Assembly (NCBI GenBank): GCA_052327205.1 | Contig: CM126223.1 | Location: 62,062,001-62,126,000, forward strand | Origin: Somniosus microcephalus | Taxonomy: Eukaryota | DNA: 64,000 bases | Direction: 5' to 3' | Shown here: one piece after another, positions 308-64,000 of the stretch | Layout: every line of letters starts with the position of its first letter | How positions within the stretch are numbered: the stretch's first letter is position 1 | Notes under the pieces: model-generated | What the model saw: the letters and a program-made list of their open reading frames with translations, nothing else | Databases searched by the model: none | What the model was told of the DNA's origin: nothing | Translations under genes and position numbers: made by a program

Positions 308-608
308 TCAATCAATAGCCTTGCAGTACTTGTTCATGACAGTGAATAATTAACAAAGGAATTACTGACATAGGATTGTCATCGTGATTGACAATGCTGT
401 TGTAAATAAAGGGCATAGTGCCCCTTAGATATATAAAATATTGTGTTTGGTAAGCAACCGAATGTAATTGGAAACTTCAGAGTCTGAGTTGATTATAGGG
501 TAGCACAACTTTAAACTGGAATATTGTGGGAAAAAATCTGTATAATCTGTCCATTGTGATTTTAGTTCTACATTGTACTAGACAGTGCTCTTTTTTTTTT
601 CCCCCCAG

Positions 609-863
609 AGAGGCATTCCTGCACTGAACCTTGAAAATCTCAACCAGTTTCCATCTGCTCCTATTCCTACGTTAAGTGGGACCCCGATGACTTTGCCTAC
701 TTCAGTTCCACAGCAGTCTATGATATCGGTGCCAACTGGTCCGACTGTATCTATGTCTGTTCACACTGGCCAGTCTGTGGTAGGAATGAACCTTCCTGTA
801 CCAGTGGGTGGCAGCACAACCCAAGTTTCCAGTGGTTTTATGGCATCTTTCCCCGTCAGTCAG
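609..863 (+). CDS. SYNRG: Synergin gamma internal exon (RGIPALN...FPVSQ), phase 0-0
   Basis: Polypyrimidine tract and AG at 607-608, GT at 864. The 85 codons resemble vertebrate SYNRG 'RGVPAMSPDALNQFPAAPIPTLSG' (recalled). Confidence 0.93.
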
Positions 864-1003
864 GTAACTACGAGTATTATTCGAATGCAGCCATTTTTAG
901 TTCAGGAAGCACAATAAATTATTAACCCAAACAAGTAGTAATTCTGAGATTGTGAGCTAGTTAAGGAAGTACAATAAATTATTAACCAAAACATGAAATA
1001 GTA

Positions 1004-1329
1004 CAGGAAACTTTTTTTTTATCCGGGACCGACATGGTGCCGGTTCATCAAAAATTCCGGATAACCGAGAGCTATAGTAAAAGATACGGAGAGCTGAGAG
1101 CTCCGTATAAAGCAACAAACCCTGTTGCTTAGCAACAGGTTCAGAACAATGGCCACAAGTTCCAAGTGTCTCTGTAGCTTAGCAACAGCTGCAGCCACAC
1201 CCTTGCACAGCAACAGATCGAGGAAGGCAAGTACAATATGAAGTAAAACTTACCTGAACCTACTCCTGAATTTTGCCGGTTAACCGAGATTTCCGGTTAT
1301 TTAGGTGCCGGTAAATCGAGAGTTTCCTG
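1004..1329 (+). mobile_element. Tc1/mariner (pogo/Tigger-like) MITE, copy 1
   Basis: TIRs CAGGAAACT...AGTTTCCTG with TA on both sides (1002-1003, 1330-1331). Confidence 0.85.
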
Positions 1330-3372
1330 TACTGAGATTGTCACCTGTAACCTCCTGTTACCATGGTCTTAATTACAAATATACAGCAAGACAACTTGCC
1401 TGCACTGGGCATTCTCAACAGGAGAACAATCACCTCTGCAACCCAGTGCACCAGAGATAATAAATAGAAATGTGAATAGAATTTAAAAAACTTTGCACCG
1501 TACAATCACTCAGCGGACTCAGAGATAAATCCAGAATGGCAACCTACAAAAATAGGGGCAGAACGGGGAACTTGCAATCTTTTAATGGAGAACAAGAGAA
1601 AGTAGGAATGAGAACCAGCCATTGTCTGAGTGAATACTGAGAAGATTGTTTTCCTCCATGCTTTCTTGTTGCTGATTCCTTATTTGCTCCTTAGAATATA
1701 TCAAATGGACTTGTATATTATCTTCTATTGCATGATGCTATGCAAGATAGCTCTCTGATGGAACTCCAAAAGTTTATTGGTAACTCCTGATAAACATTCC
1801 AAAATCTATATCCCAGTCAACATTTTTTTCATGTCAACATGTTGGAAGTGTGTCCTGCCCTGAAGTTGCTGGCCTCCTGTTGGGGTACAGTTCTACAGGC
1901 ACTGGCAGCCATCTACTACCTTACCCACCTGACCATTTTCCTATGTGAGCCCAGACACTGAGCTATTTGCTCCTGAGGTGTGTTTCATGACTGAGCCCGA
2001 TCCTGTCCTTGCCCAGTGGCTGCACACACCAGCACTTTCCATTCGTGGACAGTGATCAGGAGCTGGGGACCCTGGTTGAGTTTCCCCTCTCCTCTCCCCA
2101 CCACTGTACGTTTTGGTTTACAATACATTTTTAATTTTCCTTGCATTTCCAGCTTTATTTTAGTTTTCTGAGCTGCGGTAACTATCCACGGGCCCTGTTT
2201 TGTTTTGGCAGGCAATAATGATCAAGCAGAAGAAATAACAATTGTGAGAAATGATCTATTTAATAAAAAGTGCTGAGTGTGCATTGTTAGAGAATAAAGA
2301 AATCAATATTCTCAAGTATTAACATTTTTGTTTAAAAATTAGCTGTATAATGAACTAACTTTTCAATGGATACTGGGTATTTATTTTGCTAAGAAGCCCT
2401 GTTACAAGCTAGCTTCTGATGAGAACTAATGTTTGTAACTGTTAGTTAATGGGAATTGTCAGGCTTTCCCATAAACAGAGACATGTCAATCAAAAAAAAC
2501 TTACAAGTGAGTGACTCATATAGTCATTCAGGTTCTTCTGCCGGCTCGTTCGATGTATTAGTGTCTTTCATTTAAATCAAATATCTAACTTGCAAAGTAA
2601 AGATAAAAGGGCTGATTCCCTGGCACATTAGCCATGGAGTGCTGGTTTGGGAAATTGCAGGCCCAAAGGCCCGGGTTTTCTGTCCAACCAAGGAATCGGC
2701 CCTAAAAAGAAACAAGCTACAAATGCTGAAAAAGAAACCCACAAATGTCAGGAATTAAAACACAATGGCCCAGAACTTGGTGTCGGGGGCTTGCCGCGCG
2801 TGCAAGCCCCCGATCTGCACTCACCCTGCGCGCTGACATCTGAAGCCCGGGCCTGCTTGCATTTCCTGTCACAGGCCCGGTTCAGATGTCAGCGCGCAGT
2901 GCTTACCTGATCCAGCGGCGTAGTTAGTGCGATGTGCCGGCTGGGATCTGGTGAGCACTGTACAACCAATCAGGGGAGGGGAAGGTTCATTCATGAGTTT
3001 GAGAGTAAGAACTGTCAAACTCATGAAAACTACAGGGGCCCAAAACACTCTTTAAACTTTAAATAAAAATTTTAAAAACATCCCAATCATTAAATTAAGT
3101 ATAAATAAGTTTAAAAAAATAATTTAAACAATTTTTTTTTTTTGAAAAAATAAATCTATATATATAAAAGAGCTCTCCTGTCTGTCTGTCCCGATGTCTG
3201 TCTGTCTGTCCGTTCTCTATACGTTTGAAAGTTACAGAGCGTACCTCAAAAGAAAGCTTGCGATTCCGGACCGGTCATAGGCGTATTTACGTTTTGGCCG
3301 GACAAAAATCCTGCCCGCGGTATCCCAAAAACGTTCAGCGTTCCGCTCATTAGCACCTCATTAGCGACCGTG

Positions 3373-3539
3373 TGACGTCGAGGTCCACCAATCGGACGGC
3401 GGGTTCCTTCCTACAGTTGAGTGTCGAGTGACTCGACGATTGACCAATCCTACGCTTCGGTGACCTGACCGGTCGACCAATCGGTGCGTGTGTGGGCGGG
3501 CCTTATCCTTCTGAACCGAGGTGAGTGGCCGCCATCTTG
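3373..3539 (+). promoter_or_regulatory. Promoter-like module inside the Helitron
   Basis: CRE-like TGACGTCG at 3373; CCAAT at 3388, 3444 and 3477; GC box at 3494; donor GAG|GTGAGT at 3521; YY1-type GCCGCCATCTTG at 3528. Confidence 0.6.
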
Positions 3540-3728
3540 ATTTTTCACAATTTTTCCCCCCACACTTTCTGTGTGTTAGGGAACTAAGGTAAATATTTTA
3601 ATGATGTGTTAGGAAATTAAATAACAATTTAATAGGGGGGGGGGGGGAAGAGCCTTGGGAAATCGCGGGGGGGGGGGGGGGGGCGAGCCTCGGGAAATCG
3701 CGGGGCGCTCGCGCTGACCGCGCATGCG

Positions 3729-4253
3729 CTGACCGCGCATGCGCCGCCCGCCCACCCACAGCGGCCGTCCATCAGCCGCGCGATACGCGGGGGACCTCGG
3801 CTCCGGACCTCAGGCGCTAGGCAGGGGGAGGGGCCGGAGAGAGGGACAGAGGGGAGCGGGGGAGGCGAGGGGAGGGAGAGGAGGGGAGGGAGGGAGGGGA
3901 GGGGAGGGAGGGATAGGACAGGAGAGGGAGAGGACATGACCGGGAGAGGGGGGACACACAGGGGCAGGGAGACCAAGCGCCCCAAAATTGCCCACTGACC
4001 GCGCATGCGCCGCCCGCCCGCCCACAGCGGCCGTCCATCAGCCGCGCCATACGCGGGGGACCTCCGCTCCGGACCTCGGGCGCTAGGCAGGGGGAGGGGC
4101 CGGAGAGAGGGACAGAGGGGGGTGGGGGTGGGCGAGGGGAGGGAGGGAGGGAGGAAGACAGGGGAGGGGAGGGAGGGATAGGACAGGGAGAGGACATGAC
4201 AGGGAGAGGGGGGACACACAGGGGCAGGGAGACCAAGCGCCCCAAAATTGCCC
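3729..4253 (+). repeat. Tandem duplication (~265 + ~259 bp), G/purine-rich, inside the Helitron
   Basis: Units ctgaccgcgcatgcgc...ccccaaaattgccc at 3729-3993 and 3995-4253. Confidence 0.9.
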
Positions 4254-5130
4254 TCGCAACGCGGGGCTCCCCAGCTAGTTTTTAATAAAAAGGGTCTAAA
4301 ACTAAACTTACCTTATTGTAGATTCTTTAAAATAATAAACCTGTGGGAAAAAAAATTCTAAACTACACTAAAACACCACTTACCTGTAAAAATAAATACT
4401 TACGTGTGCTTTTTACAAGCGTAAAGACCGGAGGCCTTTAGACATGCGCAAATCCCCCAAAACGGAGGAAATCCAAGACACACGCGCTGCCCCCTACAGC
4501 GCACGCGCTAGCCTCTTCAACTCTTGGGTTGGAGGAGAGGAAATGCCGGTTTTCAGCGCATGCGCTGTGCATGCTGAAAACCGGCATTTCCTCTGGCCAG
4601 ACGCGTGAGTACCCCTTCCGTACTCACGCGTTTGAGGAGGAATTTCTGCCCCAAAATGCTGGTTCATCAGTATCTGAAAAGAGAAAAGGCAGAACAGAAC
4701 CAGCGCTAACCTGCCTTTTCTCTTGCAGCTACTGACAAACCTGTGCGTTTCAAACATTTTCTTGTCCTTTCTCAGTAGTTTTACGCCATGCTAAGATCAT
4801 CTTCACGGGTGTCAGTACTGCAGCCTCTTTAATCTCTGCAATCTTGACTTTAGTGAAAACAAGAAACCTTGTGACGACTAAATGCTCTAACACACAATGA
4901 TGCTGCACACAAACACTTCACACGTTGCTCATGATTATTATTTGTTTTGCCTTTTAGCTGAAGCCGATATGTGGGATGATAGTTACAGTGTGAAAATTTG
5001 GGCAGTTGTCTTGTAAATATAGTTAATGATGTGCTTAAAAGGTGTGCAATGCAACATAATAGCAGTGACGGTTTGAACAATAACGCCAAGGATTAACGTA
5101 TACCAAAACTAAATCCTTCCCTTTATCCAG

Positions 5131-5270
5131 GTTGCAAAATCTGATGACGACGATTTCCAGGATTTTCAGGAGGCTCCTAAGCCTAACACAGCCGACGATT
5201 CTTTCAGGGCGTTCAAGGGTGAAGCCTCTGGAACCTTATCGAAGGCACCAAGCTCACAGACCACAATCAG
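5131..5270 (+). CDS. SYNRG: SYNRG exon (VAKSDDDDFQDFQEAPK...TTIS), phase 0-2
   Basis: tttatccag|GTTGCA acceptor, AG|gtttga donor, DDFQDF gamma-ear-type motif. This frame is missing from the ORF track. Confidence 0.92.
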
Positions 5271-6359
5271 GTTTGAATTATTGGCATGCAATAGTTATCT
5301 GCACAGTTGGATCTCGCCAATTGATATCCCAGTATAGGATGAATAAGAGCTGGGCAAGCCAGACAGCCTACCCAGTGTAATAAAAGTGAAAGGTGGGTGT
5401 AGTAAATGACTCGGAGTGTCAGCAGGACACTTAGCAACTGGCGTGCCTTATCACTGCGGCTGGCTAAAACAATATGGGGCAGGACATCATTCCTACACTG
5501 ATTTCTTCTCCACTTTGACTCCTTAAAAAATTATACAAAGGGTCTGAATGGAGTCCTAGTTTCAGAATCTTAGATCTAAATATAGTGAAATGTATTGGTA
5601 AAATCAGAGCTCTACAGACCATTGTTTGCTAATATTAATGCTCGTTCTCAAAACGTATGCCAGGGTCTCTTTATTTGGGCAGGTGATATTTTCACTCTAA
5701 TAACTTAAGACTGGAATTGAGAATTACATTTTAGCATTGAGCCAACAGGTTTCACAATTGACCGAATGCCCTTTACTTGATGCCTGTTTGATCAAATGGG
5801 GTATAAATTTAGGATTGAATTAGTCATGTGTACTGGTTCAAGTAAAATACAAAATAATTCCTATTAGCTCAAAAAGCAACAAGTGAGATTGGCGAGTGAA
5901 ATTTAAGCTGTGCTGGTATATCTGTGCCGACTGCTGAACAAAAATATCCCAACAAGCGAATAAATTGGGATAGATAGCTGAACGTAATCGAACCCTGCCT
6001 CACATCCATCCGTCTGATATTTAATATCTTAGTTATACAGTTATTTTAGGATTACATTTTATTGATTTTATTTAACTTTTGTTTTTCTCCCACGCAAAGT
6101 TCAACTTGGAGTGAAGAAAGTTGACACGGAGCAGTGGAGCAAAGCCGATTTAGTGGTCACATATGAATGATTTTGCTGTAAAGCTCAGCCTCACAGTCGT
6201 AAAATCGAAAGTTGTTTCTGCCATTAGCTGGTCACCCAGTTGAACCTGCAGAATGTTTTTCTTGCTAAACTTGTGTAGTATTTCTGATCCCGGTAGCAAA
6301 ACATTTTGTCTGCATAGTGTAAGTGATTTATTTGCTGTACCAAGAATGTTGCCTTTTTA

Positions 6360-6696
6360 CAGGAAACTTTGTGTTATCCGGAGGCTAAATGTCCGGCAAG
6401 CTCGAGCCACCGGCAAAAATCAGGAGTCGTTTCGTTAGTTTTTTTTTCTTTTTGTTGCTTTTTTTCTCGACAGCCAAGCTCTGCAAGGTCTCGCTAAAGC
6501 TGTTGCTAAGCTACAGAGACGCTACAGAGATGCTTGCAAGGTACGGCCGACTGCTATTGCTAAGCAACAGGGTTTGTTGCCAGATACGGAGCTCAAAATC
6601 TCCGTATGTTTCAACATTAGCGCTGGTTTGTCCGGCAGTTTTGATCTAACGGCAACAGCTCGGTCCCGTCGGTGCCGGATAGCACAAAGTTTCCTG
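6360..6696 (-). mobile_element. pogo/Tigger-like MITE, copy 2
   Basis: TA-CAGGAAACTTTGTG...CACAAAGTTTCCTG-TA. Reverse complement of the 63175 copy. Confidence 0.88.
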
Positions 6697-8798
6697 TAGT
6701 AAGCTTTAAAATTCATTGATGAGGCTTTTTTTTTGTCTGCCTGAAATGAGAGAATTCTTTACTTGAATTAGCTATTGCAACCAAACATTCCAATTGATAC
6801 TGTATTTTGAAGGCAGCTCAGAACGCAAGCCGGACCTTTAACAAAGTCATAAGATTTTACTTAGAATTTATAGTTTGCTCTGTAAATGTGGGAAAGAATG
6901 CTTGCGCAAAGGTTTCTGCTGTATAACCAGAGTCTATGTATTCAGAGTTCCTGAAACCTCCTTTTATACGGTTGCTTTCACATACACTACTCTCTTCCCC
7001 GCGTTCCTCCCACATCCAGTTTTCTCGCCGCCTCTCCTAATGGTGGTGATTCATGCTCGGGACGGAATTCCAATTGGAGCCTCTCTCACCCACATGTCTT
7101 TAGTCAGGGAAGGGTGGAAGAGAAACTGAGGGCAATGGTAGCAGCCCCATTTCCACCTACACTAAAAACTACTGTGCAAGGAAAAGCCTTCGTGAAAATA
7201 ATCACAGCTCTGGAAATGAGTGGTGGCCAATTGGTGGGTAGCTATGCATTGTGCTACTGCGAATTTCTCTTGTTTTTGAAAAACATTTTATTGAGGTTAA
7301 GTACATGACTCACCAATAAAAAAATACATGTCGAGCAAATGTAACAATGCTGCCTAAATTTTGGCTTAATACTGCAGCGTAAAATGAGCTACAGGGGTCA
7401 TAGTTACCATACTTCATTAAAAAACAAAACTTATAAAAGCTGCCTCTGTTGAATCAGAATGGAGTCATAGATGATCAACGGATATTCTTAGCAATGAGGT
7501 GATGGTTATTACAGCTTTATTAAAATGCAATGTAGAAAGACACACACAGAAAGTAATAAGGAAGGATTTTACGTTATTGCCTTTGTTTCCTTATTATGAA
7601 AGGGGATCCATTGTAACTGGGTGGTAAAGTAAAGATTTCTATTCATCGAAGATAATGGTGCCAAATGGAAATTGAAAACCATTTATTCTTGCAGTCTTTG
7701 TGTTTTGATTTGATTTACACACATTTTCTGAATCCTGACAGGATTGCAGTACTGAGCCGCTTGCTCTTAACTGTTCAGTAATTTATTAAAGGTTTTAACT
7801 ATGCTGTAAGAAAGTGATTTTTAGGGTGGTAATAAATAATTGACAGTTTTTTGCTGCAGGTATATTCATTGAAATCTTACGGCAGTTATGTGTTTTTCTT
7901 GTAGTAGATGTTTTTTTGCTTACACTTGTGTTCTATGATCACTATTGTATGCAAATTTCTCAATGATTAACATTTTGTACATTTAAACACTTCAAATGAA
8001 CAAATATTGTAGCTCAGGGAGCTTTGTAGTGCTGTCCACAACAACTTAATCTGCAAATATCTATGTGGAAATCTGATTGTATGATTGAAATATGCAATCT
8101 AAATTACTGAGTCAAATTCCAAAACAATTGTCATTGCAGTTTATAACAATTCAGTCAATTCAGAATGGATGATCTTCCTTTGTTCTTTTTGAGAGAAGAT
8201 TTTTTTTTCGTCATGTTTAATGCTGCTCTTGTACTGAAACAGCGATCAGAGATGACTAAAAAGCCATTACGTGTGAGAAAATAGTTTTCATAGTTTACCA
8301 TAATGGGTAATTGTGGTCAATAGAACACACCACTGCACACTGATGTCACGGACTACGCCCTGGCTGTGGAAAAACCACTGGATTGGCATTTGAGGTTTTT
8401 AGGGTGGTACTCCTCGCATTCTGACATGAGCACTTTCTGTCATTGATATTTTTCTTTTTGCTGAGGAGTCATTATGTAGAGGCTTGTACTTTCCGTTAGC
8501 TCTTTGCCCCTTGACAGCCATTGTCCTTCAGAGGACAATAAAATAAATGTGGTTTTCTGGAGTGCAAAGTTTGTTTGTAGATGTGAAAGAGGGCGTGTTA
8601 TACAGCATTTGAAAAGACACTCGGTCACTTCTGTAAGCGGGATTATTGGCCTTACCTGGAAAGTCTTACTTGTTTCGCTTGAACACTAATGAGAATTATA
8701 ACTGCAGGAAAAACTACTTACCTGCAGTTCTTCAGGCATGCATCTATGAACAGTGATGTTTGAGATCATTTTGAGTAATTGAATTCTCTCTCTTTCAG

Positions 8799-9314: not shown

Positions 9315-9490
9315 TATTTTATTTCAAGCCATACATGAAAGTTTTGGTCATTGTTGTTCCTCCGGCTCCCCCACACTCTCCGCTGGTTCCCACCAGTGCT
9401 GCCGATCGCTCGACCCCTCCCTCAACACCCAGGACAACTCGCTTCGTCCACAGGCCTGGGGAAAAGGGGCGGCAAATGGCGTTCAACCGC

Positions 9491-9641
9491 TGGCAGCCAT
9501 TTTACCCACCATGCCAGAGCCGCTGGTATCTACCCACCGCGCCGGAGCCGCCAGCAGCCATTTTACCCACCGTACCCAGAGCCGCCAGCAGCCATTTTAC
9601 CCACCGTACCCAGAGCCACCAGCAGCCATTTTACCCACCGT
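9491..9641. repeat. 34-bp minisatellite, about 4 degenerate units
   Basis: Unit ccagcagccattttacccaccgtacccagagccg. Confidence 0.85.
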
Positions 9642-9999
9642 CCAATTGTAAGCATTTTTAAATTCCTGGATGTATGAATTAGATTATGATGTGCATCAAA
9701 TTTTTTCAAATTAAAAAATATATATTTGCTAAGTATTTCAGTCTCAAAATTCAAACTAATAAAATTGGCTTGTGTATATATAGTGTATATTGCTAAACAT
9801 GTTATATTACTGGATTTCATATCTTCATGTTTATTTTTTGAGAGAATGTTGCCCTGTTTTCTCCCTTTGCTCCTCCTGTGTACACCTCATACATTGTCCA
9901 GTGCTCCAGGTCACTGCTGCTTCCAAACCACTACCACTTACCAGAAGGCACATGAGAGCTGCCTGGTGAGGATACCTTTCCAATAATAAAGAAAATGAG

Positions 10000-10409: not shown

Positions 10410-13400
10410 GGGGGAGAAATTCAGTATCGCCCCATTTGGGGCGCAATTATTGGCCGAGTGCAAAGATTAGCGCCTGGCGCTAATTATCGCCTCCGACTGC
10501 AAACTTGGCTTTTATCGCCCCTGGAGGTGATTGGAGCGCTAAATCAGGTGCTACACACCTGTCTTAAGGCGCAAAGGCCGAGCAGCGAGGCGCTACCTCA
10601 GAGCGCTGGTGAAGCTCATGTGATGTCAGTCAGCAATGGAACACAGACACAATGGCGTCGACCAGTTCTTAAAGGGGAGGGTTGATCTTGCTCACCATCC
10701 ACATCCTGCTCATTGCAGTCTTGAATCTTGGCCTGGAGAGACCTGTACATCAAATCAGCTGGAAAGAACAATGGAGAGGCCCAGGGAAAGAGCTGAGAGT
10801 GCAGCCCCCACAGTCTCTTCTAAATCAATACAAGGAAGGGCAAATCAAAATGAACCTGCAAAGTGCTGCTCAGTGAATCTCTCCAGAAGTCTGTCTCTCT
10901 CTCTCTTGCTCTCGCTCTCGCTCTCTCTCGCTCTCTCTCAGAATGTGTGGTGCAAAAATGTCACCAACAAAAAAAGGCACGAAGTGGTCACCTTTTAAAT
11001 AGCGCTCCCCCAGTCCCTTCCTGACTGCAAAATGCTCCCCTCAACCTGTCATAGAAACATAGAAGATAGGAGCAGGAGTAGGCCATTCGGCCCCTCGAGC
11101 CTGTTCCGTCATTTAATGAGATCATGGCTGATCATCCAAATTCAGTACCCTGTCCCTGCTTTCTCCCCATATCCCTTGATCCCTTTAGCCTTAATAAATA
11201 TATCTAATTCCTTCTTGAATATATTTAATGAATTGGCCTCAACTGCCTGTGTGGTAGAAAATTCCACAGGTTCACCACTCTCTGGGTGAAGAAATTCCTC
11301 CTCATCTCATCTCAGCCCTAAATGGCTTACCCCTTATCTTTAGACTGTGACCCCTGGTTCTGGACTCCCCTGCCATCGGGAACATCCTTCCTGCATCTAA
11401 TCTGTCTAGTCCTGTTAGAATTTTATAAGTTTCAATGAGATCCCCTCTCATTCTTCTAAACTCTAGTGAATATAAGCCTAATCGACCCAATCTCTTCTCA
11501 TACGTCATTCCTGCCATCCCAGGTATCAGTCTGGTGAATCTTTGCTGCACTCCCTCCATGGCAAGAACATCCTTCCTCAGATAAGGTGACCAAAACTGCA
11601 CACAATACTCAAGGTGTGGTCTCACCAAGGCCCTGTACAACTGCAGCAAGACATCCTTGCTCCTGTACTCAAATCCTCTCGCTATGAAGGCCAACATAAC
11701 ATTTACCTTCTTAACCACCTGCTGCACCTGCATGCTTACCTTCAGCGACTGGTGCACAAGGACACCCAGGCCTCGTCGTACTTCCCCTTTTCCCAATCTA
11801 TTGCCGTTCAGATAATCTGTCTTCCTGTTTTTGCCACCGAAGTGGATAACCTCGCATTTATCCACATTGGGCAGATGCATGGCAAATGCAGTATAATCAC
11901 CCAACCTGTCCAAATCATACTGGAGTTTTTCTGCATCCTCCTCGCAGCACACATGCCCACCCAGCTTTTTGTCGTCTGCAAACTTGGAGATATTACATCC
12001 AGTTCCCTCGTCTAGATCATTTATTTATATTATATATATATATATATATAATTTATATTGTGAATAGCTGGGGTCCTAGCACCGATCCCTGCAGTACCCC
12101 ACTAGTCACTGCCTGCCACTCGGAAAAAGACCCGTTTATTCCCACTCTTTGCTTCTTGTCTGCCAACCAGTTCTCTATCCAAGACAGTACCTTACCCCCA
12201 ATCCCGTGTGCTTTAACTTTGCACGCTAATCTCTTATGTGGGACCTTATCGAAAGCCTTCTGAAAGTCCAAATACACCACATCCACTGGTTCTCCCTTAT
12301 CTATTCTACCAGTTACATCCTCAAAATATTCCAGTAGATTAGTCAAGCATGATTTACTTTATGTAAATCCATGTTGACTTTGTCCGATCCTGTCCCTGTT
12401 TTCCAAGTGCTCTGCTATTACATCTTTTATAATGGACTCTAGCATTTTCCCCCACTACCGATGTCAGACTTACCGATCTATAATCCCCCATTTTCTCTCT
12501 GCCACCTTTTTTAAATAGTGCGGTTACATTAGCTATCCTCCAATCCATGGGAACTGTTCCGGAGTCCATAGAATTTTGGAAGATGACCAGCAATGCATCT
12601 ACTATTTCTAGGGCCACTTCCTTAAGTACCCTAGGATGTAGATTATCAAGCCCTGGGGATTTATTGGCCTTCAATCCCGTCAATTTCCCCAACACCATTT
12701 CCCTACAAATACTGATTTCATTCAATTCCTCCCTCTCATTAGACCCTATGTTCCCCGACATCTCTGAAGGTTATTTGTGTCCTCCTTTGTGAAGACAGAA
12801 TCAAAGTATGTATTTAATTGGTCTGCCATTTCTTTGTTCCCCATTATAAATTCCCCTGATTCTGCAAGGGACCTACGCTTTGACTTCACCAATCTTTTTC
12901 TCTTCGCATATCTATAGAAGCTTTTACAGTCAGTTTTTATGTTCCCTGCAAGCTTACTCTCATAATCTATTTTCCCCCTCTTAATTAATCCCTTTGTCCT
13001 CCTTTGCTGAATCCTAAACTGCTCCCAATCCTCAGGTTTGCTGCTTTTTCTGGCCAAATTATATGTTCTCTCCTTGGATCTTATGCTATCCCTAATTTCC
13101 CTTGTTAGCTACGGTTGAGTCACCTTTTTTGTTTTTGTGCCAAACAGGGAAGAACAAATTCTGTAGTTCATCCATGCGATCTTTAAATGTTTGCCATTGC
13201 CTATCCACCGTTAACCCTTTAAGTAACATTCCCCAATCCATCCTAGCCAACTCGTGCCTCATACCATCGTAGTTCCCTTTATTTAAATTCAGGACCCTAG
13301 TCTCTGAGTCAACTACTTCATTCTCCATTTTAAAGAAGAATTCGATCATATTATGATCGCTCCTCCCCAAGGGGCCTCGCACAACAAGATTGCTAATTAA

Positions 13401-14662
13401 TCCTTTCTCATTACATAATACCCAGTCTAAGATGGCCTGATCTCTAGTTGGTTCCTCGATATATTGGTCCAGGAAACCATCCCGTATACACTCTAGGAAT
13501 TCCTCCTCCACCGTATTGTTACTAACTTGGTTAGCCCAATCTATATGTAGATTGAAGTCACCGATGAAAACGGCTGTGCCCTTATCGCACGCGTCTCTAA
13601 TTTCCTGTTTAATGCCATCCCAAACCTCAGCATTACTGTTTGGGGGTCTGTATACAACACACACTAACGTTTTCTGCCCCTTGGTATTTCTCAGCTCTGC
13701 CCATACAGATTCCACATCATCAGAGCTAATATCCTTCCATACTATTGTGTTAATCTCCTCTTTAACCAGCAATGCTACCCCACCTCCTTTTCCTTTTTTC
13801 CTGTCCTTCTGAATGTTGAATTCCCAGTCTTGGTCACCCTGGAGCCATGTCTCCGTAATCCCAATTCTATCCTATCCGTTTACATCTATTTGCGCAGCTA
13901 ATTCATCCACCTTATTATGAATGCTCCTCGCATTAAGACACAAAGCATTCAGGCTTGTTTTTTTAACACTCTTAGACCTTTTAGAACTTATTTACTGTGG
14001 CCATGTTTGATTTAAACTCTTGACTGCCTGCCACTTTTGCTTTTCTCCTTCCTGTCTTTTGCTTCTATCCTTGTTTCCCATTCCTCTGTCTCCCTGCACA
14101 GGTTCCCAACCCCCTGCCATTTTAGTTTAAACCCTCCCCAACAGCACTAGCAAACACTCCCCCTAGGACATCGGTTCCGGTCCCGCCCAGGTGCAAACCG
14201 TCCAGTTTGTACTGGTCCCACCTCCCGCAGAACCGGTTCCAATGTCCCAGGAATTTGAATCCCTCCCCCTTGCACCATTCTTCTAGCCACGTATTCATCT
14301 GAAATATCCTTCTATTTCTACTCTGACTAGCATGTGGCACTGGTAGCAATCCTGAGATTACTACCTTTTGAGGTCCTATTTTTTAAATTTACCTCCTAAC
14401 TGTCATTGCTAGCGGCAGGTGGTAAGGCGGGGGGCGCCACTCAATACCCGGTCTGGGGCGCTACTGGAGCGTTGCACACTCGACTGACGTCATGATCTGC
14501 CGGTGCAGGAGGTCGTGGCGATAGTGTTTAGCGCCGCCGCAAAATGTCTAGTTAATTTTGTGAGCGGCGCAAACATCGCCGCGCACGGGCGCTAGTTGCT
14601 TTGCGCCCCATTATCGCCCTCTTAACTAACGGGAGGCGCAAACCAACTGAATTTTTCCCCCC
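10410..14662. mobile_element. Harbinger-like non-autonomous DNA element, with a CR1 inside it
   Basis: TIRs GGGGGAGAAATTCAGT / ACTGAATTTTTCCCCCC; 3-bp TSD TCT (10407-10409, 14663-14665). Confidence 0.75.
11050..14400 (-). mobile_element. CR1 LINE, 5'-truncated, frameshifted: ORF1 esterase C-terminus plus ORF2 APE and RT
   Basis: Minus-strand ORFs: LDGLHL (SGNH-type ORF1), VVYRPPN/GDFN/SDHN (APE), DFQKAFDKVPH and QGSVLGPQLF (RT), LVRPHLEYCVQFWSP; (ttctatg) tail. Confidence 0.95.
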
Positions 14663-48179: not shown

Positions 48180-48930
48180 GGCTCAGAAATTCGGGTCGGA
48201 GGCTTCCCGCGGGTGCAAGCCTCCGACCTGCACTTACCTTGCACGCCGGCCGTTGAGCTGTGGGCCCCCGTGGAATTGCGATCCTGGGCCTCCTCCAACT
48301 GCTGGCGCGCAGTGCTTGCGTATCCCAGGGGCGCAGTTAGTTCGATGCGTCCCCTGGGATCACGTGGGCTATGGAGAGCCAATGGTAGCAGGGAATGCTT
48401 CATTCATATAGGTTTGACAGGAAGACCTGTCAAACCTATAAAAACTATAAGCCCCAAAAATCACTAAAACCTCAAATAAATTTTTTTTTAAATCACATTT
48501 TTAAAATAAACTATAAATTACATGAAATAACTTTTAAACAATACAGCAATTTAAATTTTTGAAAAGAAATTACATTTTCTAACGGGGCTAAAATAAACTT
48601 ACCTTTCTTTAAAGTATTTAAAAATAATAAACCTGTGGAAGAAATGTTTTAATTTTAATTAATTCACCACTTACCTTGTTAAAAGCAGGCCTTGCGACTG
48701 CTTTTTACATGTATAACTTCTGGAAACTTACCTTCCCGGAGAAACCTGGGAAAAAAACGTAAGTTCGATGCGCACGCGCTGCCTCTCTCGCGCACGCGTT
48801 CCACCTCTTAACCCCTTTCAGGGGAACGGAAGTGCCGGTTTCCCGTGCATGCACGAAACCGGCACTTCCATTGGGCCTACGGGTGAGTACCCCGTGCGTA
48901 CTCACCCGTGGAGACCCGAATTTCTGGGCC
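48180..48930 (+). mobile_element. PIF/Harbinger-like MITE, intact
   Basis: TIRs GGCTCAGAAATTCGGGTC / GACCCGAATTTCTGGGCC; 3-bp TSD ATT. Confidence 0.85.
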
Positions 48931-49479: not shown

Positions 49480-51630
49480 CATAGAGCCATTCGGCCCATC
49501 GAGCCCACGCCGGCTCTCAGTAGAGCAATCCAATCAGTCCCATTCCCCCGCTCTATCCCCGTAGCCCTGCAAGTTTATTTCCCTCAAGTGCCTATCCAGT
49601 CTCCCCTTGAAAACATTGAGTGTCTCTGTTTCCACCACTTCCATCAGCAGCGAATTCCAGGTCCTCACCACTCGCGTAAAAAAGTTTTTCCTCACATCCC
49701 CCCTGTATCTCTTGCCCAAAACCTTAAATCTGTGTCCCCTAGTCCTTGTACCATCAACTAATGGGAACAGCCTTACCCCGTCTAGCCTATCCAAACCCGT
49801 TATAATCTTGTACACCTCTATCAAATCATCCCTCAACCTCCTTTGCTCTACTGAAAACAAATCCAGTTTCTCCAACCTGTCCTTGTAGCTAAGATTCCCC
49901 CATCCCCGGAACCATTCTGGTAAATCTCTGCACCCTCTCAAGGGCCTTCACATCCTTCCCAAAGTGTGGTGACCAGAACTGGATGCAACACTCCAGCGGC
50001 AGCCCAACCAGCGCTCCACAGAGGCTGAGCACAACCTCTTTACCTCTGCATTCAACACCTCCACCCATGAAGCCCAAGATCCCACACGCTCCACCAATCA
50101 CTCTCCCAACACGTCCCTCCACCCTCCGGGACCCACGCACACCAACTCCCAGGTCCCTCCGTCCCCGCACACTTCCCAAAGCCGCGCCACCGCCTCTCCC
50201 CGTTCCCCCCGCCAAAATGCATCACCAAACTCCATCCGCCACCCGTCTGCCCACTCCGCCAGCCCCTCCACACCCTGCTGCAGTCAATCGGCATCATCCT
50301 CACTGTTTGCCACACCCCCAAGCTTGGCGCCATCAGCAAACTCAGAAATTCCACTCTGCACCCCAACATCCAGGCCATCCACATACACCAAAAAAAGCAA
50401 TAGCCCCAGCACTGACCCCCGGGGAACACCACTGTCCCCCAGTTCGAAAAACAGCCATCTACCACAACTCGCTGCCCGCCATCCCCAAGCCAGTTCCCCA
50501 CTCAAGCTGCCACTGATCCACCCACTCCACAAGCCCCAACCCTGCCAACCAGCATTCCACGCGGTACCCTGCCAAACGCCCTCCAAAAATCCACGCAGAC
50601 AACATCCACCGCACTCCCCCCACCAGTCCCCTCTGCCACCCCATCAAAAAACTCAACTAGATCAGCAAAACACAATCCGCCCTCCACAAATCCATGCCGG
50701 CCCTCCCCAATCAGCCCAAATCTCTCCAAGCACCCGTCAACCCCTTCCCTGACCATTGCCTCCAAAACCCCACCCACCATCGATGCCAAACCAACTGGCC
50801 CGCAGTCACCAGGACACCCCCCCCCGCCGAACTACGGTGCCACACCCCAATCCTCGGGCACTTCCCCCACATCTAGGGAAGATTGGAAAATTATGGCAAG
50901 CCCTTCTGCTATCTCCTCCCCTAATTCCCTTAGCAACTTGAGGTGCAAGCCATCTGGACCAGGCGACTTGTCCACTCTAAGCATACCCAGCCTTTCCAGT
51001 ACATCCTGTCTATCAATTTTCACCCCTTCCATTGCTTCTACCTTTTCCATTTCTACTGATATTTTGTCAGCATCCACCTCCTTAGTAAATACCGATACAA
51101 AGTACTCATTGAGTATTCTAGCCTTGCCCTGCGCCTCTAAGCACATAACACCTTCTTTGTCTCTAATAGGCCCCAGCCCGCCTCTTACTACCCGCTTACT
51201 GTTTACTTGCCGGTAGAAGATTTTTGGGTTCCCTTTTATGTTAACCGCCATTCTACTCTCATATTCTCTCTTTGCCAATCTTATTTTCATCTTTACTTCC
51301 CCTCTCAACTTATTGTATTTGGTCTGGTTCTCCCTTGAAGAATTCACCTGACATGCGTCATACACCCTCTCTTTTGTTTCATCATCTTCTCTATCTCCCT
51401 CATCATCCAAGGAGCCCTTGCTTTGGTTCCCCTTACCCTTCCCTCTTGTTGGAATGTACCTAGTCTATACTTGGAACATCTCCTCCTTAACGATCACCCA
51501 GTGTGCCGTTACAGTTTTTCCTGTCAGTCTTTGGTCCCATTTTACCCTGGCTAGATCCTTTCGCATCCCATTGAAGTTGGCCCTATTCCAGTTTAGAAGT
51601 TCCACTCTAGATTGCTCCAAAATCCTTTTC
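49480..51630 (-). mobile_element. CR1 LINE ORF2 fragment with a hypermutated tract
   Basis: DKSPGPDGLH and RDDLIEVYKI at the flanks; RT motifs still recognisable but altered in ~49955-50870. Confidence 0.93.
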
Positions 51631-51801: not shown

Positions 51802-52578
51802 GGTCCCGTAATTCGGGTCGGGGGCTTCCTGCGGGTGCAAGCCCCCGATCTGCACTTAGCTTGCACGCCGGCCGTTGAGCTGTGGGCCCCCATGGAATTC
51901 CGATCCGGGGCCTGGTCCAGCTGCCAGCGCACAGTGCTTGCGTATCCCAGGGGCGCAGTTAGTTCGATGCATCCCCTGGGATCACGTGGGCCATGGGGAG
52001 CCAATCGAAGCAGGGAATGCTCCGTTCATAAGTCTGACAGGAAGTGCTGTCAAGACTTATAAATACTACGGCCCCAAAACAGCACTAAATCTTCAAATAA
52101 TTTTTTTTTTTAAATCACATTTTTAAAATAAACTATAAATTACATGAAATAACTATTTTAAACAATTTAAATTTTTGAAAAAAATTATTTTATTTTCTAA
52201 CGGGGCTAAAAATAAACTTACCTTGCTTTAAAGCATTTAAAAATAATAAACCTGTGGGAAAAAATGTTTTAATTTTAATTAATTCACCACTTACCTTGTA
52301 AAAAGCAGGCCTTGCAACTGCTTTTTACATTTCTAACTTCTGGAGACTTACCTTCCTGGGAAAACCTGTTTTAAAAAAAAAAAAAAAAAAAACGAAGTTC
52401 GATGTGCAGGCGCAGCCTCCCCTGCGCGCGCGTTCGACCTCTGAACCCCTTCGTTCAGAGGAACGGAAGTGCCGGCTTCCCGCGCATGCGCCGTGCATGC
52501 AGGAAACCGGCACTTCCATTGGGCCTACGGGTGAGTACCCCGTGCGTACTCACCCGTGGGGACCCGAATTTCTGGGCC
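51802..52578 (+). mobile_element. PIF/Harbinger-like MITE, close relative of 48180
   Basis: Highly similar throughout; 3' TIR GACCCGAATTTCTGGGCC. 5' TIR degenerate and TSD not matched. Confidence 0.85.
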
Positions 52579-55590: not shown

Positions 55591-56261
55591 CAGGAAACTT
55601 TTTTTATCCGGCACCGACGGGACCGGCATGGTGCCGGTTGATCAAAAAGTCCGGATTACAGAGAGGTATACTTACCAAGGTACGAGAGCCCCGTACACGG
55701 CCACAGGTACAGGAGCCCCGGTTACACGGCCACAGGTACAGGAGCCCCGGTTACACGGCCACAGATCCAGGAGTCCCTGTTGCAGGGCTACAGGTGCAGG
55801 AACCCCGGTTACACGGCCACAGATCCAGGAACCCCGGTTATACGGCACTTGTGCAGGAGTCCCGGTTACACGGCCACAGATCCAGGAGTCCCTGTTGCAC
55901 GGCTACAGGTGCAGGAACCCCGGTTACACAGCCACAGATCCAGGAACCTCGGTTATACGGCACTTGTGCAGGAGTCCCGGTTACATGGCCACAGATCCAG
56001 GAACCCCGGTTACACGGCACTTGTGCAGGAGTCCCGGTTACACGGCCACAGGTGCAGGAGCCCCTGTTGCACGGCTACAGGTGTAGGAACCCCGGTTACA
56101 CGGCTACAGGTGCAGGAACCCCGGTTACACGGCCACAGATCCAGGAACCCCGGTTACATGGCCACTAATATATAGTAAAACTTAACTGAACCTACTTCTG
56201 AATTTTGCCGGTTAAGAAAGATTTCCGGATATTTAGGTGCCGGTTAAAAGAGAGTTTCCTG
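55591..56261 (+). mobile_element. pogo/Tigger-like MITE, copy 3, with internal minisatellite
   Basis: TA-CAGGAAACTT...AGAGTTTCCTG-TA; both ends match copy 1. Confidence 0.88.
55682..56165. repeat. 28-29-bp minisatellite, 17 units
   Basis: Consensus CAGGAACCCCGGTTACACGGCCACAGATC with recurring variants. Confidence 0.95.
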
Positions 56262-57748
56262 TAATCTGCAAGTTTTGTTATATTGGCATCGATATTCTTC
56301 ATGATCTTAAACCAAGCTGGAACTTTCTCTTTTGCTTTGCTTTGGTACTATAAGCTTGGTTTCGGCTTTATTATTGAGGTGAGAAGCTAGAGAATGTTTT
56401 TTTTCCCCCATGAAATGGAGACAGTGGCTGGGAACAAGCAATGGTAGAAATCTTGAGTGGTTTTAAAATACTAATAGTTAAAAATGCATTGTAGTAGAGA
56501 ATCAAAATATCTTGCATTCACTGAGCTTTTTTTCTATAATTGCATTCCTTTGGGATAATACAGAAGGTAAGCAATGCACTTAGTTTTAATCTTTGCTCAC
56601 AAAATAATACTTTGTGTTAGCATTACATTGACACCAGCACCCATGTGTTATGTTAATTCAAGAAAAATGATTTATGGTGATTATAGCTTTGGTTTTTTTT
56701 TAGTGCCATCTTCTCTTTCAGTGGTCTGACAGCTGTTCCTGTAAATAACCATTGTCCCTTACTATCTGGAAACTGCATCTTTTCTATACTGTTCCCCTTG
56801 GCGAGGTGGGTACTTGAGGACGAGATATTACCCCACTTGCTGAATTTAGTGCAGTCTCATGACATGAACAGAGGAGACAGAAATGCAAAGCTTAATTTAC
56901 AGAAGTTGAGTAGCGACTGAGGTGTGAACGCTTTGCACATCTGCATCAAACATTTTTTTTACAGTGACGCAAGCCAATTCTTTAGATCAAAGAAAAGCAT
57001 CTGCCAATTCAATCAAACTGATTTGTTTTTCCATCCTATGACCATGCAGGTCAAAAAAGCCAGCAGATTAGACATTGTCATGATGGTTACAGTTACCAAC
57101 TTAAAAAAGAAACAGTATAATGATTCATAATCTACCTATTTATATGCATTATAAATACATGTATGTGTGATATATACACATTAAAGTAAGACCCAAAAAC
57201 TACACCAGCAAAAAAAAAATAGCATTTTCCTCCAACTACAATGCGTTTTCAGATGCTGTTATCTTCCAGTGCACATTAATTTTGATTTTATACCCGGAAT
57301 CAATTTCTTTACTTCGGTGACTTTAAAGCTTAATGGACCATTTTCTACAGTAGCAGTGTTTATATTCCATCATTCTTTGTGATTGCTGCTTAAAGATCCA
57401 ATCATTAAAATAGCCTTGGAGAACATAAATGGTGAAAATGATTGTTGCAACTGTCCAACTTTAAGTAATGTTGCTTTCACACGTCACAAAAACCATAACT
57501 TTGGAATTCAAAGCATAGCCCTGTGTAACCAAATTGACGCATTTTGACCAAAGCTATAATTGTCTTGTCTTATTCTGAAATAACTATAAAGTTGCAGTGT
57601 CCAGTAAAGGTTTGTATGAGGGATAGTTTTGCTGTTTCTTGGTCTACTGTTCTTAAATTTCAGCTTTGAACTGTCCAAAGTCACATCGTCCCAGTACAGC
57701 CAAAGAAAATGGGAGGAAGTACCAAGGACATCATATATACTGTAATGT

Positions 57749-59202: not shown

Positions 59203-61010
59203 CATAGAATCATAGAAATTTACGGCACAGAAGGAGGCCATTTGGCCCATCGTGTCTGTGCCAGCTGAAAAAGAGCTCTCCACCCTAATCCCACTTTCCA
59301 GCTCTTGGTCCGTAGCCTTGTAGGTTACGGCACTTCAAGTGCATATCCAAGTACTTTTTAAATGCGATGAGCGTTTCTGCCTCTACCACTCTTTCAGACA
59401 GTGAGTTCCAGACCCCCACCACCCTCTGGGTGAAAAAAGTTCTCCTCCACTCCCCTCTAATCCTTCTACCAAAACTTTAAATCTATGCCCCCTGGTTATT
59501 GACCTCTGCTAGGGGAAATTGGTCCTTCCTATCCACTCTATCTAGGCCCCTCATAATTTTATACACCTCAATCAAGTCTCCCCTCGGCCTCCTCTGTTCC
59601 AAAGAAAACAACTCCAGCCTATCCAATCTCTCCTCATAGCTAAAATTCTCCAGTCCTGGCAACATCCTCGTAAATCTCCTCTGTACCCTCTCTAGTGCAA
59701 TCACACCTTTCCTGTAATGTGGTGACCAGAACTGTACACAGTACTCTAGCTGTGGCCTAACTAGTGTTTTATACAGTTCAAGCATAACCTCCCTGCTCTT
59801 ATATTCTAAGCATCGACTAATGAAGGAAAGTATCCCGTATGCCGCCTTAACCACCTTATCTACCTGTCCTGCTACCTTCAGGGATCTGTCGACATGTACT
59901 CCAAGGTCCCTCTGTTCCTCTACACATCTCAGTATCTTACCATTTATTGTGTATTCCCTTGTCTTATTAGCCCTCCCCAAATTACCTCACACATCTCCAG
60001 ATTGAATTCCATTTGCCACTTTTCTGCCCACCTGACCAGTCCATTGATATCTTCCTGCAGTCTACAGCTTTCTTCCTCACTATCAACCACACGGCCAATT
60101 TTTGTATCATTTGCAAACTTCTTAATCATCCCCCTACATTGAAGTCTAAATCATTGATGAATACCACAAAAAGCAAGGGACCGAGTACTGAGCCCTGCAG
60201 AACCCCACTGGAAGCAGCCTTCCAGTCACAAAAACATCTGTCGACCATTACCCTTTGCTTCCTGCCACTGAGCTAATTTTGGATCCAACTTGCCACTTTC
60301 CCTTGGATCCGATGGGCTTTTACTTTTCTGACCAGTCTGCCATGTGAGACCTTGTTAAAAGTCTTGCTAAAAACCATGTAGACGACATCAAATGCACTAC
60401 CCTTATCAACCCTCCTTGTTACCACCTCAAAAAAATTCAATCAAGTTAGCCAGACACGACCTTCCCTTAACAAATCCATGCTGACTGTCCTTGATTAATC
60501 CGTGCCTTTCTAAATGACGATTAATACTATCCCTCAGAATTTTTTACAACAATTTGCCCACCACCTAGGTTAGGCTGACTGGCCTGCAGTTACTCAGTCT
60601 ATTCCTTTCTCCCCTTTTGAACAATGGTACAACATTAACAGACCTCCAGTCCTCCGGCACCGCACCTGTAGCCAGAGAGGATTGAAAAATGATGGTCAGA
60701 GCCTCTGCTATCTCCTCCCTTGCTTCTCTTAACAGCCTGAGATACATTTCATCTGGGCCTGGGGATTTATCTACTTTCAAAGGTGCTAAACCCCTTAATA
60801 CTTCCTCTCTCACTATGTTTATCTCATCTAATATTTCACACTCCTCCTTCTTAACTACAATGTCTGCATTGCCCCTCTCTTTTGTGAAAACAGAACCATA
60901 CCCACGGCTTCTGCCTCCTCACACAAACTTCATTTTTGGTCTCTAATAGACCCTACTCTTTCTTTAGTTATCCTCTTGCTCTTTATGTATTTATAAAACA
61001 TATTTGGGTT
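59203..61010 (-). mobile_element. CR1 LINE ORF2 fragment, unedited
   Basis: LYKTLVRPQLEYCVQFWSP, KFANDTK, DKSPGPD; attctatg tail. Confidence 0.93.
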
Positions 61011-62551: not shown

Positions 62552-63174
62552 TTGAAGAAAGTTAATGCTTTTTGTTAAAAAAAAAAAAAAAAAAAATTCC
62601 TTGTGTTTAACAAATGTAATATATTATAACTCTAAAATATACAGTTAAATGCAGTAAGCGATTGCTTCAAATGGGCGACATACACTAAAAGTGCAGCTTC
62701 CCATCAGTATAAACTTAATGTTCAAAGTGTGGGAACAGAGGTTTTGGCTAATGCGTAGAGGACTCCAAAATGAATGTACACGTCATTGTCCAAGAAGGAA
62801 AGGAATGTCTGTCTCGCTCATAATGGGGCCATTTCATATAGTAGGCAAGTTAGAAATCTGATTATTATAATACGGATGCACAATCATGCCTCCATTCAAC
62901 CTGCATTTAACAGTTTTAATGAATATGCTTGAAAAAAACGAGTTGAAGAACGAGTTTCAAGGTCACGAATTTGATCATCAGTCTGTGCTGAGTTTGGTGA
63001 TCTCAGCAAGGGCAGCCGTGTGTTTGTCGGTAGCTGGGAGCAGTCAGCCTGAACTGAGAAGTATGCAGTGCCTCCTGCTGGAAAGTCTATGTATGCATGT
63101 GAATGTTGGATAAGAACAGAGCAGTGATTCCCACTTTGTTAAAAAAGAATGTCCAACTCGCACTCATCAAGATA

Positions 63175-63498
63175 CAGGAAACTTTGTGATATCCGGCACC
63201 GACGGGACCGAGCTGTTGCCGTCCCATCAAAACTGCCGAACAAACCAACGCTAATGTTGAAACATACGGAGCTTTTGAGCTCCGTATCTAGCAACAAACC
63301 CAACAGCTTCTAAACAGTCGGTCGTAGCTTGCAAGCGTCTCTGTAGCTAAGCAACAGCTTAAGCGAGACCTTGCAGAGCCTGACTGGTGAGAAAAAAAAG
63401 CAACGAAAAGGAAAAAAACGTACTGAACCGACTCCTGAATTTTGCCGGTGGATCGAGCATTCCGGACAGTTAACCTCCAGATAAACCAAAGTTTCCTG
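63175..63498 (+). mobile_element. pogo/Tigger-like MITE, copy 4
   Basis: TA-CAGGAAACTTTG...CAAAGTTTCCTG-TA. Confidence 0.88.
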
Positions 63499-64000
63499 TA
63501 AGATGCTAAATGGCAGTTGGCATCAATGGAACCATACTTCATCATGAGCCACCACCTTGGGAGAGGAACAGAGAAAATTGGAAACCAAGATTCGCAATTT
63601 GGTCTCTGTTCATGTTGCCCTGGAAGTATCTTAAACATTAAGTGCATTAACTTCGACCATAGTTCAATTATAGCTAAACTAAATGGTTGTCGGGTATATG
63701 TGACTGCCTGGTTACTATTCATTGTCCCTACATAACAAAGAAAAAATGGTTACGGCACAGTTATGCTAAAGGATTAAAGTATATGAGTATTTGGTAGATG
63801 TATTGAGTGAATTCTTCATGACGAATTTTGCAAAGGAGATCTGTAGACAAATTCTGAATTTCATCCTCCAGAAATGTAATTTGGAACTAAATTGAAGATT
63901 TATTAAGTAGAAATTCCAAGTGCTATAAAAACTGGACTCTCTCCTTTATTAATGGATTTTAATTGCAAAGTCAGTAAGAAAGAAAGGAAGGGACATCGCC

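Follow-up and report, generated by a model that had tools for sequence, protein, structure and literature searches.

The window, by which we mean the whole 64,000-nucleotide stretch of DNA analysed here, holds most of the gene SYNRG on the + strand, which is the host gene of the Helitron discussed below. With three shark proteins as queries, tblastn placed eleven SYNRG exons per query in the window; the largest has 93% identity to the protein of Pristiophorus japonicus and 90-91% to those of Heptranchias and Heterodontus, which points to a shark, probably a squalomorph one. In a Pfam search with four SYNRG exon translations, three had no match and one had a weak match below the cut-off. The Helitron lies in the SYNRG intron at 864-5130, which is bounded by phase-0 exon ends: the upstream coding exon (609-863, + strand) was placed by the open reading frame list and the shark protein alignments, and the downstream coding exon (5131-5270, + strand) starts in phase 0, with its first ATG, at nucleotide 14, out of frame. 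A 34-bp tandem repeat in a SYNRG intron (9481-9643) contains four GCCATTTT matches to the YY1 core. Broken LINE-like endonuclease and reverse-transcriptase frames, which by resemblance we take to be CR1/L2-like, lie on the minus strand at 11305-13871, 49537-51464 and 59486-60918.

The element at 3155-4278 (1,124 bp, + strand) had been predicted to be a Helitron with TC, hairpin and CTAG ends at an A/T site, and its ends, empty paralogues and empty-site joints bear this out. Its left terminus (3155-3210, + strand) consists of a TC at 3155, preceded by an A, a TA-rich run and then (TCTG)n-type repeats; TA-rich left ends have been described for Xenopus Heli1Xen1 (available part of PMC12001565). 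The right terminus (4250-4278, + strand) consists of an 18-nt bulged hairpin at 4250-4267, which stops 11 nt short of the 3' end, and a CTAG that ends at 4278 with T next. The hairpin (-6.6 kcal/mol, z -1.53; 18 of 200 shuffles fold equally well) is not significant by itself, and the case for a Helitron rests on the empty sites. The Helitron is missing from both of the window's paralogues of its host MITE, which confirms its boundaries, and the DNA contigs contain empty-site joints from 3150 to 4279 with ATAAA between (depth 180 in run X1 and 88 in run X2). The empty paralogues and joints fix the insertion at A/T (AAA/TTTTT) without target duplication. Helitron1 (HLE1) elements are recognised by a 5' TC, a CTRR after the hairpin and insertion at A/T, according to the available text of PMC11417382; the element at 3155-4278 has the TC end, a hairpin with a CTRR-type end, the A/T site and multiple dispersed copies. 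Since the open reading frame list gave no RepHel frame in 3155-4278, where the overlapping frames are only low-complexity and of at most 227 codons, the element is non-autonomous. A self-comparison of the 64-kb window found no second copy. Scans for the motifs of the element, exact and gapped, gave 0 and 0 matches in viral contigs and 0 and 0 in metagenome contigs; a single match in genome contigs lies in bacterial coding-like DNA without similarity to the window and was set aside as chance. The six Rfam matches in 2600-5400, all far below gathering scores, are hairpins of the MITE and the flanks.

The Helitron splits an older host MITE (2767-4652, unstranded), which measures ~760 bp without it and has paralogues at 48180-48930 and 51802-52578. 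This family, presumably Harbinger-like, has GGCCCAG-type inverted ends, and its copy at 48180 has ATT on both flanks. Each of its copies contains 2-4 AG/GTRAGT donors on the minus strand, together with CCAAT and NRF1- or ETS-type motifs; promoter-like layouts are therefore not peculiar to the Helitron. A second MITE family occurs at 1003-1331, 6357-6703, 55605-56264 and 63153-63520, and within its copy near 55.6 kb is a 29-bp minisatellite with ~17 units.

A promoter-type block lies 220-390 nt from the left end of the Helitron and faces inward. All motifs that the original prediction had named in the element (CRE-like site, CCAAT boxes, GC box, donors, YY1 and NRF1) are present at their predicted positions. 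The upstream part of the block (3373-3499, + strand), built of short similar units, contains TGACGTC at 3373, whose next letter is G, so that it has seven of the eight CRE letters, CCAAT boxes at 3388, 3444 and 3477, and the GC box GGGCGG at 3494. The units in which the CCAAT boxes sit look duplicated within the Helitron by self-comparison. Downstream follow the putative splice donor GAG/GTGAGT (3518-3526, + strand, GT at 3521), which has seven of nine consensus matches and a putative leader without ATG ahead of it, and the YY1-type motif GCCGCCATCTTG (3528-3539, + strand, with CCAT on the + strand). A second donor, AAG/GTAAAT (3586-3594, + strand, GT at 3589), stands outside the part shared by the family. 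The three NRF1-type GCGCATGCGC sites (3720, 3735 and 4001) are where they were predicted, but they do not count as independent sites: they are copies of one site made by 15-bp and 266-bp tandem duplications in a GA-rich stretch (3711-4254, + strand), the 266-bp copies being 93% identical. The same GCGCATGCGC 10-mer also occurs in host MITE copies at 4556 and 52482. The last 24 nt of the 266-bp unit (3729-4254 in the window) are also those found in front of the terminal hairpin, and in run X2 a contig joins 4269 back to 3817, which suggests right-end arrays in other Helitron copies.

We compared the block with 20,000 dinucleotide shuffles of 3155-3634. Three RCCAATS motifs appeared in none of them, the YY1 motif in 32 and AG/GTRAGT in 241, while three plain CCAAT appeared in 254, the CRE in 1,444 and the GC box in 3,576; the CRE and the GC box are within chance. 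The ordered pattern of CCAAT, GC box and donor, on either strand and counted once, was found in 10 of the 20,000 shuffles, and with the YY1 core added in 0 of 20,000; in the window it has one match. Because the patterns were written after the sequence had been seen, these figures flatter the case. A chance origin of the CCAAT/GC-box/donor/YY1 block nevertheless appears unlikely. The CpGs had been called intact, and the observed/expected ratio of 1.30 in 3200-3560, against 0.43 in the window, agrees with this; as a mark of an unmethylated island, however, they had to be given up, since CpG retention is common to the neighbouring MITEs (0.70-1.15 in eight segments).

Geometry makes rightward use of the block less straightforward. 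From the GC box to the donor there are 21 nt, and from the last CCAAT 44 nt, so that a sense first exon would be shorter than ~20 nt or transcription would start past the donor. For the pyrimidine-rich, initiator-like stretch proposed ahead of the donor, the consensus patterns for the initiator (BBCABW) and TCT give no match on the + strand between 3495 and 3520, and the nearest initiator matches on that strand, at 3544 and 3559, are both past the donor. In human promoters, NFY, SP, CREB and NRF1 motifs work in both directions, YY1 is strand-specific and sits shortly downstream of the start, and conservation of U1 sites is strongest from 50 bp downstream (available parts of bioRxiv 2023.06.27.546584 and bioRxiv 2024.05.28.596138). 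For YY1, the orientation favoured in human data puts CCAT on the transcript's minus strand, at about +12 (bioRxiv 2021.03.18.435942, as far as its available text goes). Here CCAT is on the + strand, an antisense-favouring orientation by the human rule, and by that rule the site would tend to favour leftward starts near 3543. As these rules come from human data, the YY1 and U1 geometry is a tendency and neither an exclusion nor a defining requirement. The YY1 motif resembles the Kozak motif (available part of PMC4773876); a sense Kozak start at the YY1 site was considered and rejected, as was an antisense open reading frame starting at the YY1 ATG, which has 10 codons.

The block belongs to a very abundant family. 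At least half of the sampled words of 3155-3634 are contained in 4 of 19 sequencing runs (three organism labels, two studies), and we mapped onto 550-5400 the reads of two raw RNA runs (X17 and X18) and one contig run from organism B and one contig run from organism A. Both DNA contig sets differ from the single-copy intron by 4 other letters and 8 gaps in ~1,490, the contigs of organisms A and B differing from the window at the same sites; the single-copy contigs, among those listed, end inside the host MITE. Summed DNA depth in these two contig runs is 0.2-1.9 million at the points listed in 3295-3556, against 14-31 on the single-copy flanks; this is a depth of 10^5-10^6, and the family is of high copy number. 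Summed depth is not copy number, and after an assumed thirty-fold inflation by overlapping contigs we estimate about a thousand copies or more. Depth is 0.21-0.70 million (X2) and 0.38-1.33 million (X1) at 3295-3386, is highest among the points listed in the Helitron at 3508, in the GC-box/donor block (1.9 and 1.8 million), and at 3556 is 11% (X2) and 21% (X1) of that at 3508. Subfamilies diverge from the window sequence at 3423 or 3470 on the left and at 3542 on the right, with loose ends behind 3539 and 3542 in RNA and behind 3542 in DNA, and the shared block ends at 3539-3542. From the depth peak at 3508 and these points of divergence, the GC box, donor and YY1 motif form the core feature of the family, and among the differences listed all three are widely shared, as expected of a conserved module. 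The CCAAT units vary more: most family reads have G at 3386, which makes box 1 like box 3 and gives it a better NF-Y context than in the window copy, one subfamily has lost the middle box (ACAAT at 3444), and in a further one an additional intact GC box precedes 3423.

RNA from the family comes from both strands. On SYNRG exons, coverage stems almost entirely from first mates on the minus strand, which fixes the strand of the RNA libraries, and family RNA covers the promoter-type block on both strands in X17 and X18. Normalised to a million of DNA depth, sense RNA amounts to 96-135 (X17) and 303-395 (X18) in the block, compared with 18-115 and 112-760, respectively, in the neighbouring MITE bins; it is within or slightly above the MITE range. 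The ratio of sense to antisense reads is 0.25-1.16 at 3295-3386 and rises at 3508 to 1.15 (X17) and 2.08 (X18), above all four points in 3295-3386 in both runs. Relative to DNA depth, antisense RNA in the block also exceeds that of all six MITE bins in X17 and in X18. The strand ratio and the antisense level hint weakly at initiation in some family copies; the hint is weak because the MITE ratios span 0.6-4.7 and the ratio in X17 is back to 0.5 at 3556. No accumulation of molecule ends is listed in family RNA at 3394-3611, and no loose end at 3520 is among the six best per RNA run. If these six are the best supported, the reads behind any loose end at 3520 number fewer than 94 in X17 and fewer than 333 in X18, although very short first exons may escape alignment. 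The leading RNA loose ends within the block, at 3539 and 3542, lie beyond the donor, and DNA too has one at 3542; they therefore represent unspliced reads of other subfamilies. Together with the depth at 3556, these loose ends amount to ~339 against a depth of 530 at 3508 in X17 and ~527 against 1,067 in X18, with both strands pooled and the reads not all the same. Much family RNA thus crosses the donor unspliced. Position 3612-3613 is where 38 of 90 molecules of X18 and 5 of 9 of X17 start with the first mate on the minus strand, which makes these the ends of sense-RNA fragments; the position is just ahead of an A-rich run and may be an alignment edge.

From these data we consider it very unlikely that the window copy is an active alternative promoter which, in one tissue or another (testis or early embryo, for example), splices from 3520 (or 3588) to 5131 and gives a 5'-truncated SYNRG RNA, whatever the origin of the block. 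The arrangement itself would permit it: the Helitron block is in sense orientation to SYNRG, its donor has seven of nine consensus matches, and a crude pyrimidine-tract scan gave one other candidate acceptor (3579) before 5130. There are also precedents, as HelibatN3 traps exons (available parts of PMC4778049 and PMC4224331) and intronic DNA transposons of zebrafish act as testis-specific promoters (available part of PMC9341505). What weighs against it is that no accumulation of molecule ends is listed around the donor, that family RNA is two-stranded at levels like those of neighbouring repeats, that many reads pass the donor unspliced, that rightward starts may fall past the donor in the arrangement described, and that the YY1 motif faces the antisense direction. 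The joint from 3520 to 5131 is absent among the joints listed (15/58), but so is the normal joint from 863 to 5131, and at a SYNRG exon depth of 0-0.7 in X17 and 1.3-3.0 in X18 (from 24% and 31% of the runs), in runs that may lack the insertion, this absence carries no weight. The reading frame does argue against such splicing. In the exons from 5131 on, the first ATG is out of frame and opens 47 codons whose stop is ~100 nt before the next junction, and the first in-frame Met is codon 324, behind 15 out-of-frame ATGs. Transcripts with a stop more than 50-55 nt ahead of a junction are subject to decay. By this rule the RNA joining 3520 to 5131, if made, would be open to decay, and its degradation is more probable than a short SYNRG product; a useful short SYNRG from this splicing is unlikely. 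The original prediction of a mobile promoter cassette therefore stands in part: the Helitron1 is mobile and of high copy number, and the promoter-type layout that it carries in sense to SYNRG is non-random and common to the family, but this has no initiator consensus ahead of the donor, its YY1 motif favours antisense by the human rule and its RNA is two-stranded. The alternative offered with that prediction, a native promoter of the parent element, fits at least as well as the trapping of SYNRG exons.

Based on our findings, we propose the following history. A Helitron1 copy of a very abundant shark family inserted at A/T in an older MITE in a SYNRG intron. The family bears, behind its left end, what would be a Pol II promoter-type module of CCAAT/GC-box units, a CRE-like site, a donor and a YY1 motif. 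Its most likely origin is the promoter and non-coding leader of the parent autonomous element, which would once have driven RepHel and may have been retained in short derivatives because the adjoining left end is needed for transposition. The copy at SYNRG is probably a passenger, and probably of little consequence by itself. To an origin of the block as promoter and leader of the parent, with the window copy as a passenger, we give a probability of about 50%. It is favoured because the block faces inward near the left end, where autonomous Helitrons keep their promoter: the first 966 bp of the wheat Helitron Feng8 drive a reporter (available part of PMC13286980), and Heli1Xen1 has a presumed 5' promoter (PMC12001565, in its available part). 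No autonomous parent was found among the viral, metagenome and genome contig collections scanned.

The block is more likely the parent's own than captured, but capture is a possible, if less probable, source: the housekeeping promoter of a host gene, along with the first, non-coding exon and the start of the intron, would have been amplified as the NUBPL promoter was in HelibatN3. The layout agrees with the motif set of ubiquitous human promoters, NFY, SP, CREB, YY1 and a U1 site (bioRxiv 2023.06.27.546584, in part), bat Helitrons took the promoters of 15 genes in 4,690 copies (PMC4224331, in its available part), and the sharp family boundary at 3542 could be the end of the captured piece. Position and abundance do not separate the two origins, because the captured HelibatN3 promoter sits alike and promoter-bearing bat Helitrons reach higher copy numbers (PMC4778049 and PMC4224331, in part); a block shared by subfamilies could also be an early capture. 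Against capture, the leader lacks a coding start, unlike that of HelibatN3, the unrelated MITE family has similar layouts, and the units of the block look duplicated within the Helitron. No match was found elsewhere in the 64-kb window. That the block initiates in no copy, being CpG-rich DNA of a young transposon whose motifs serve another role, such as binding host factors that help transposition, or none, seems to us decidedly unlikely. It would account for CpG retention shared with neighbouring repeats, for a CRE and a GC box within chance, for motif counts inflated by duplication and for RNA levels that resemble those of passive repeats; it would leave aside that the ordered layout is rare in shuffles even with one unit counted, that the block is the part most shared among subfamilies, and that NFY motifs by themselves can suffice for transcription from neutral sequence (bioRxiv 2023.06.27.546584, available text). 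The parent's own promoter is the reading that we retain.

Among known systems, the Helitron in the window recalls Feng8 and Heli1Xen1, which share the TC and TA-rich left end, the hairpin and the CTAG and have a promoter region inside the left end that faces the position of RepHel; here no RepHel frame stands behind the block, and a CCAAT/GC/donor/YY1 block is not described for either in the available parts of PMC13286980 and PMC12001565. The intronic DNA-transposon promoters of zebrafish (PMC9341505, available part) resemble the case in that a new first exon and a 5'-truncated transcript may result, and they have support from RNA-seq, chromatin and nanoCAGE; Helitrons go unmentioned in the available text of PMC10468316. 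In the literature covered, with repeat databases (Repbase, Dfam) and most subscription journals outside that coverage, we found no description of a promoter-bearing Helitron family in sharks. The closest counterpart is HelibatN3 of Myotis, likewise a non-autonomous Helitron1 of high copy number with promoter, short first exon and donor behind its left end, which could in principle trap downstream exons if intronic and in sense (PMC4778049, PMC4224331, in part). This layout is found here at the level of motifs, with NFY, SP and CREB upstream and the splice donor downstream. HelibatN3 has an identified donor gene (NUBPL), six codons of coding sequence and demonstrated chimeric transcripts, whereas the window Helitron has a promoter-like block known from its motifs and a leader without ATG and gives no chimeric junction among the joints listed at a SYNRG depth of 0-3. 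Because the mechanism is established in bats, an exon-trapping Helitron is not a new concept; should family-wide first-exon donation be true, the lineage (sharks) and the scale would be new. A promoter block at such copy number also offers an easy test of whether Helitrons spread their own or captured promoters. A further and rather unlikely reading is that thousands of copies of a shark Helitron family disperse a conserved NF-Y/Sp1/donor/YY1 cassette, active in germline or embryo, which would supply new first exons genome-wide, SYNRG included. If it were true, cartilaginous fishes would have undergone a rewiring of the transcriptome like that of bats, possibly from the Helitron's own bidirectional promoter.
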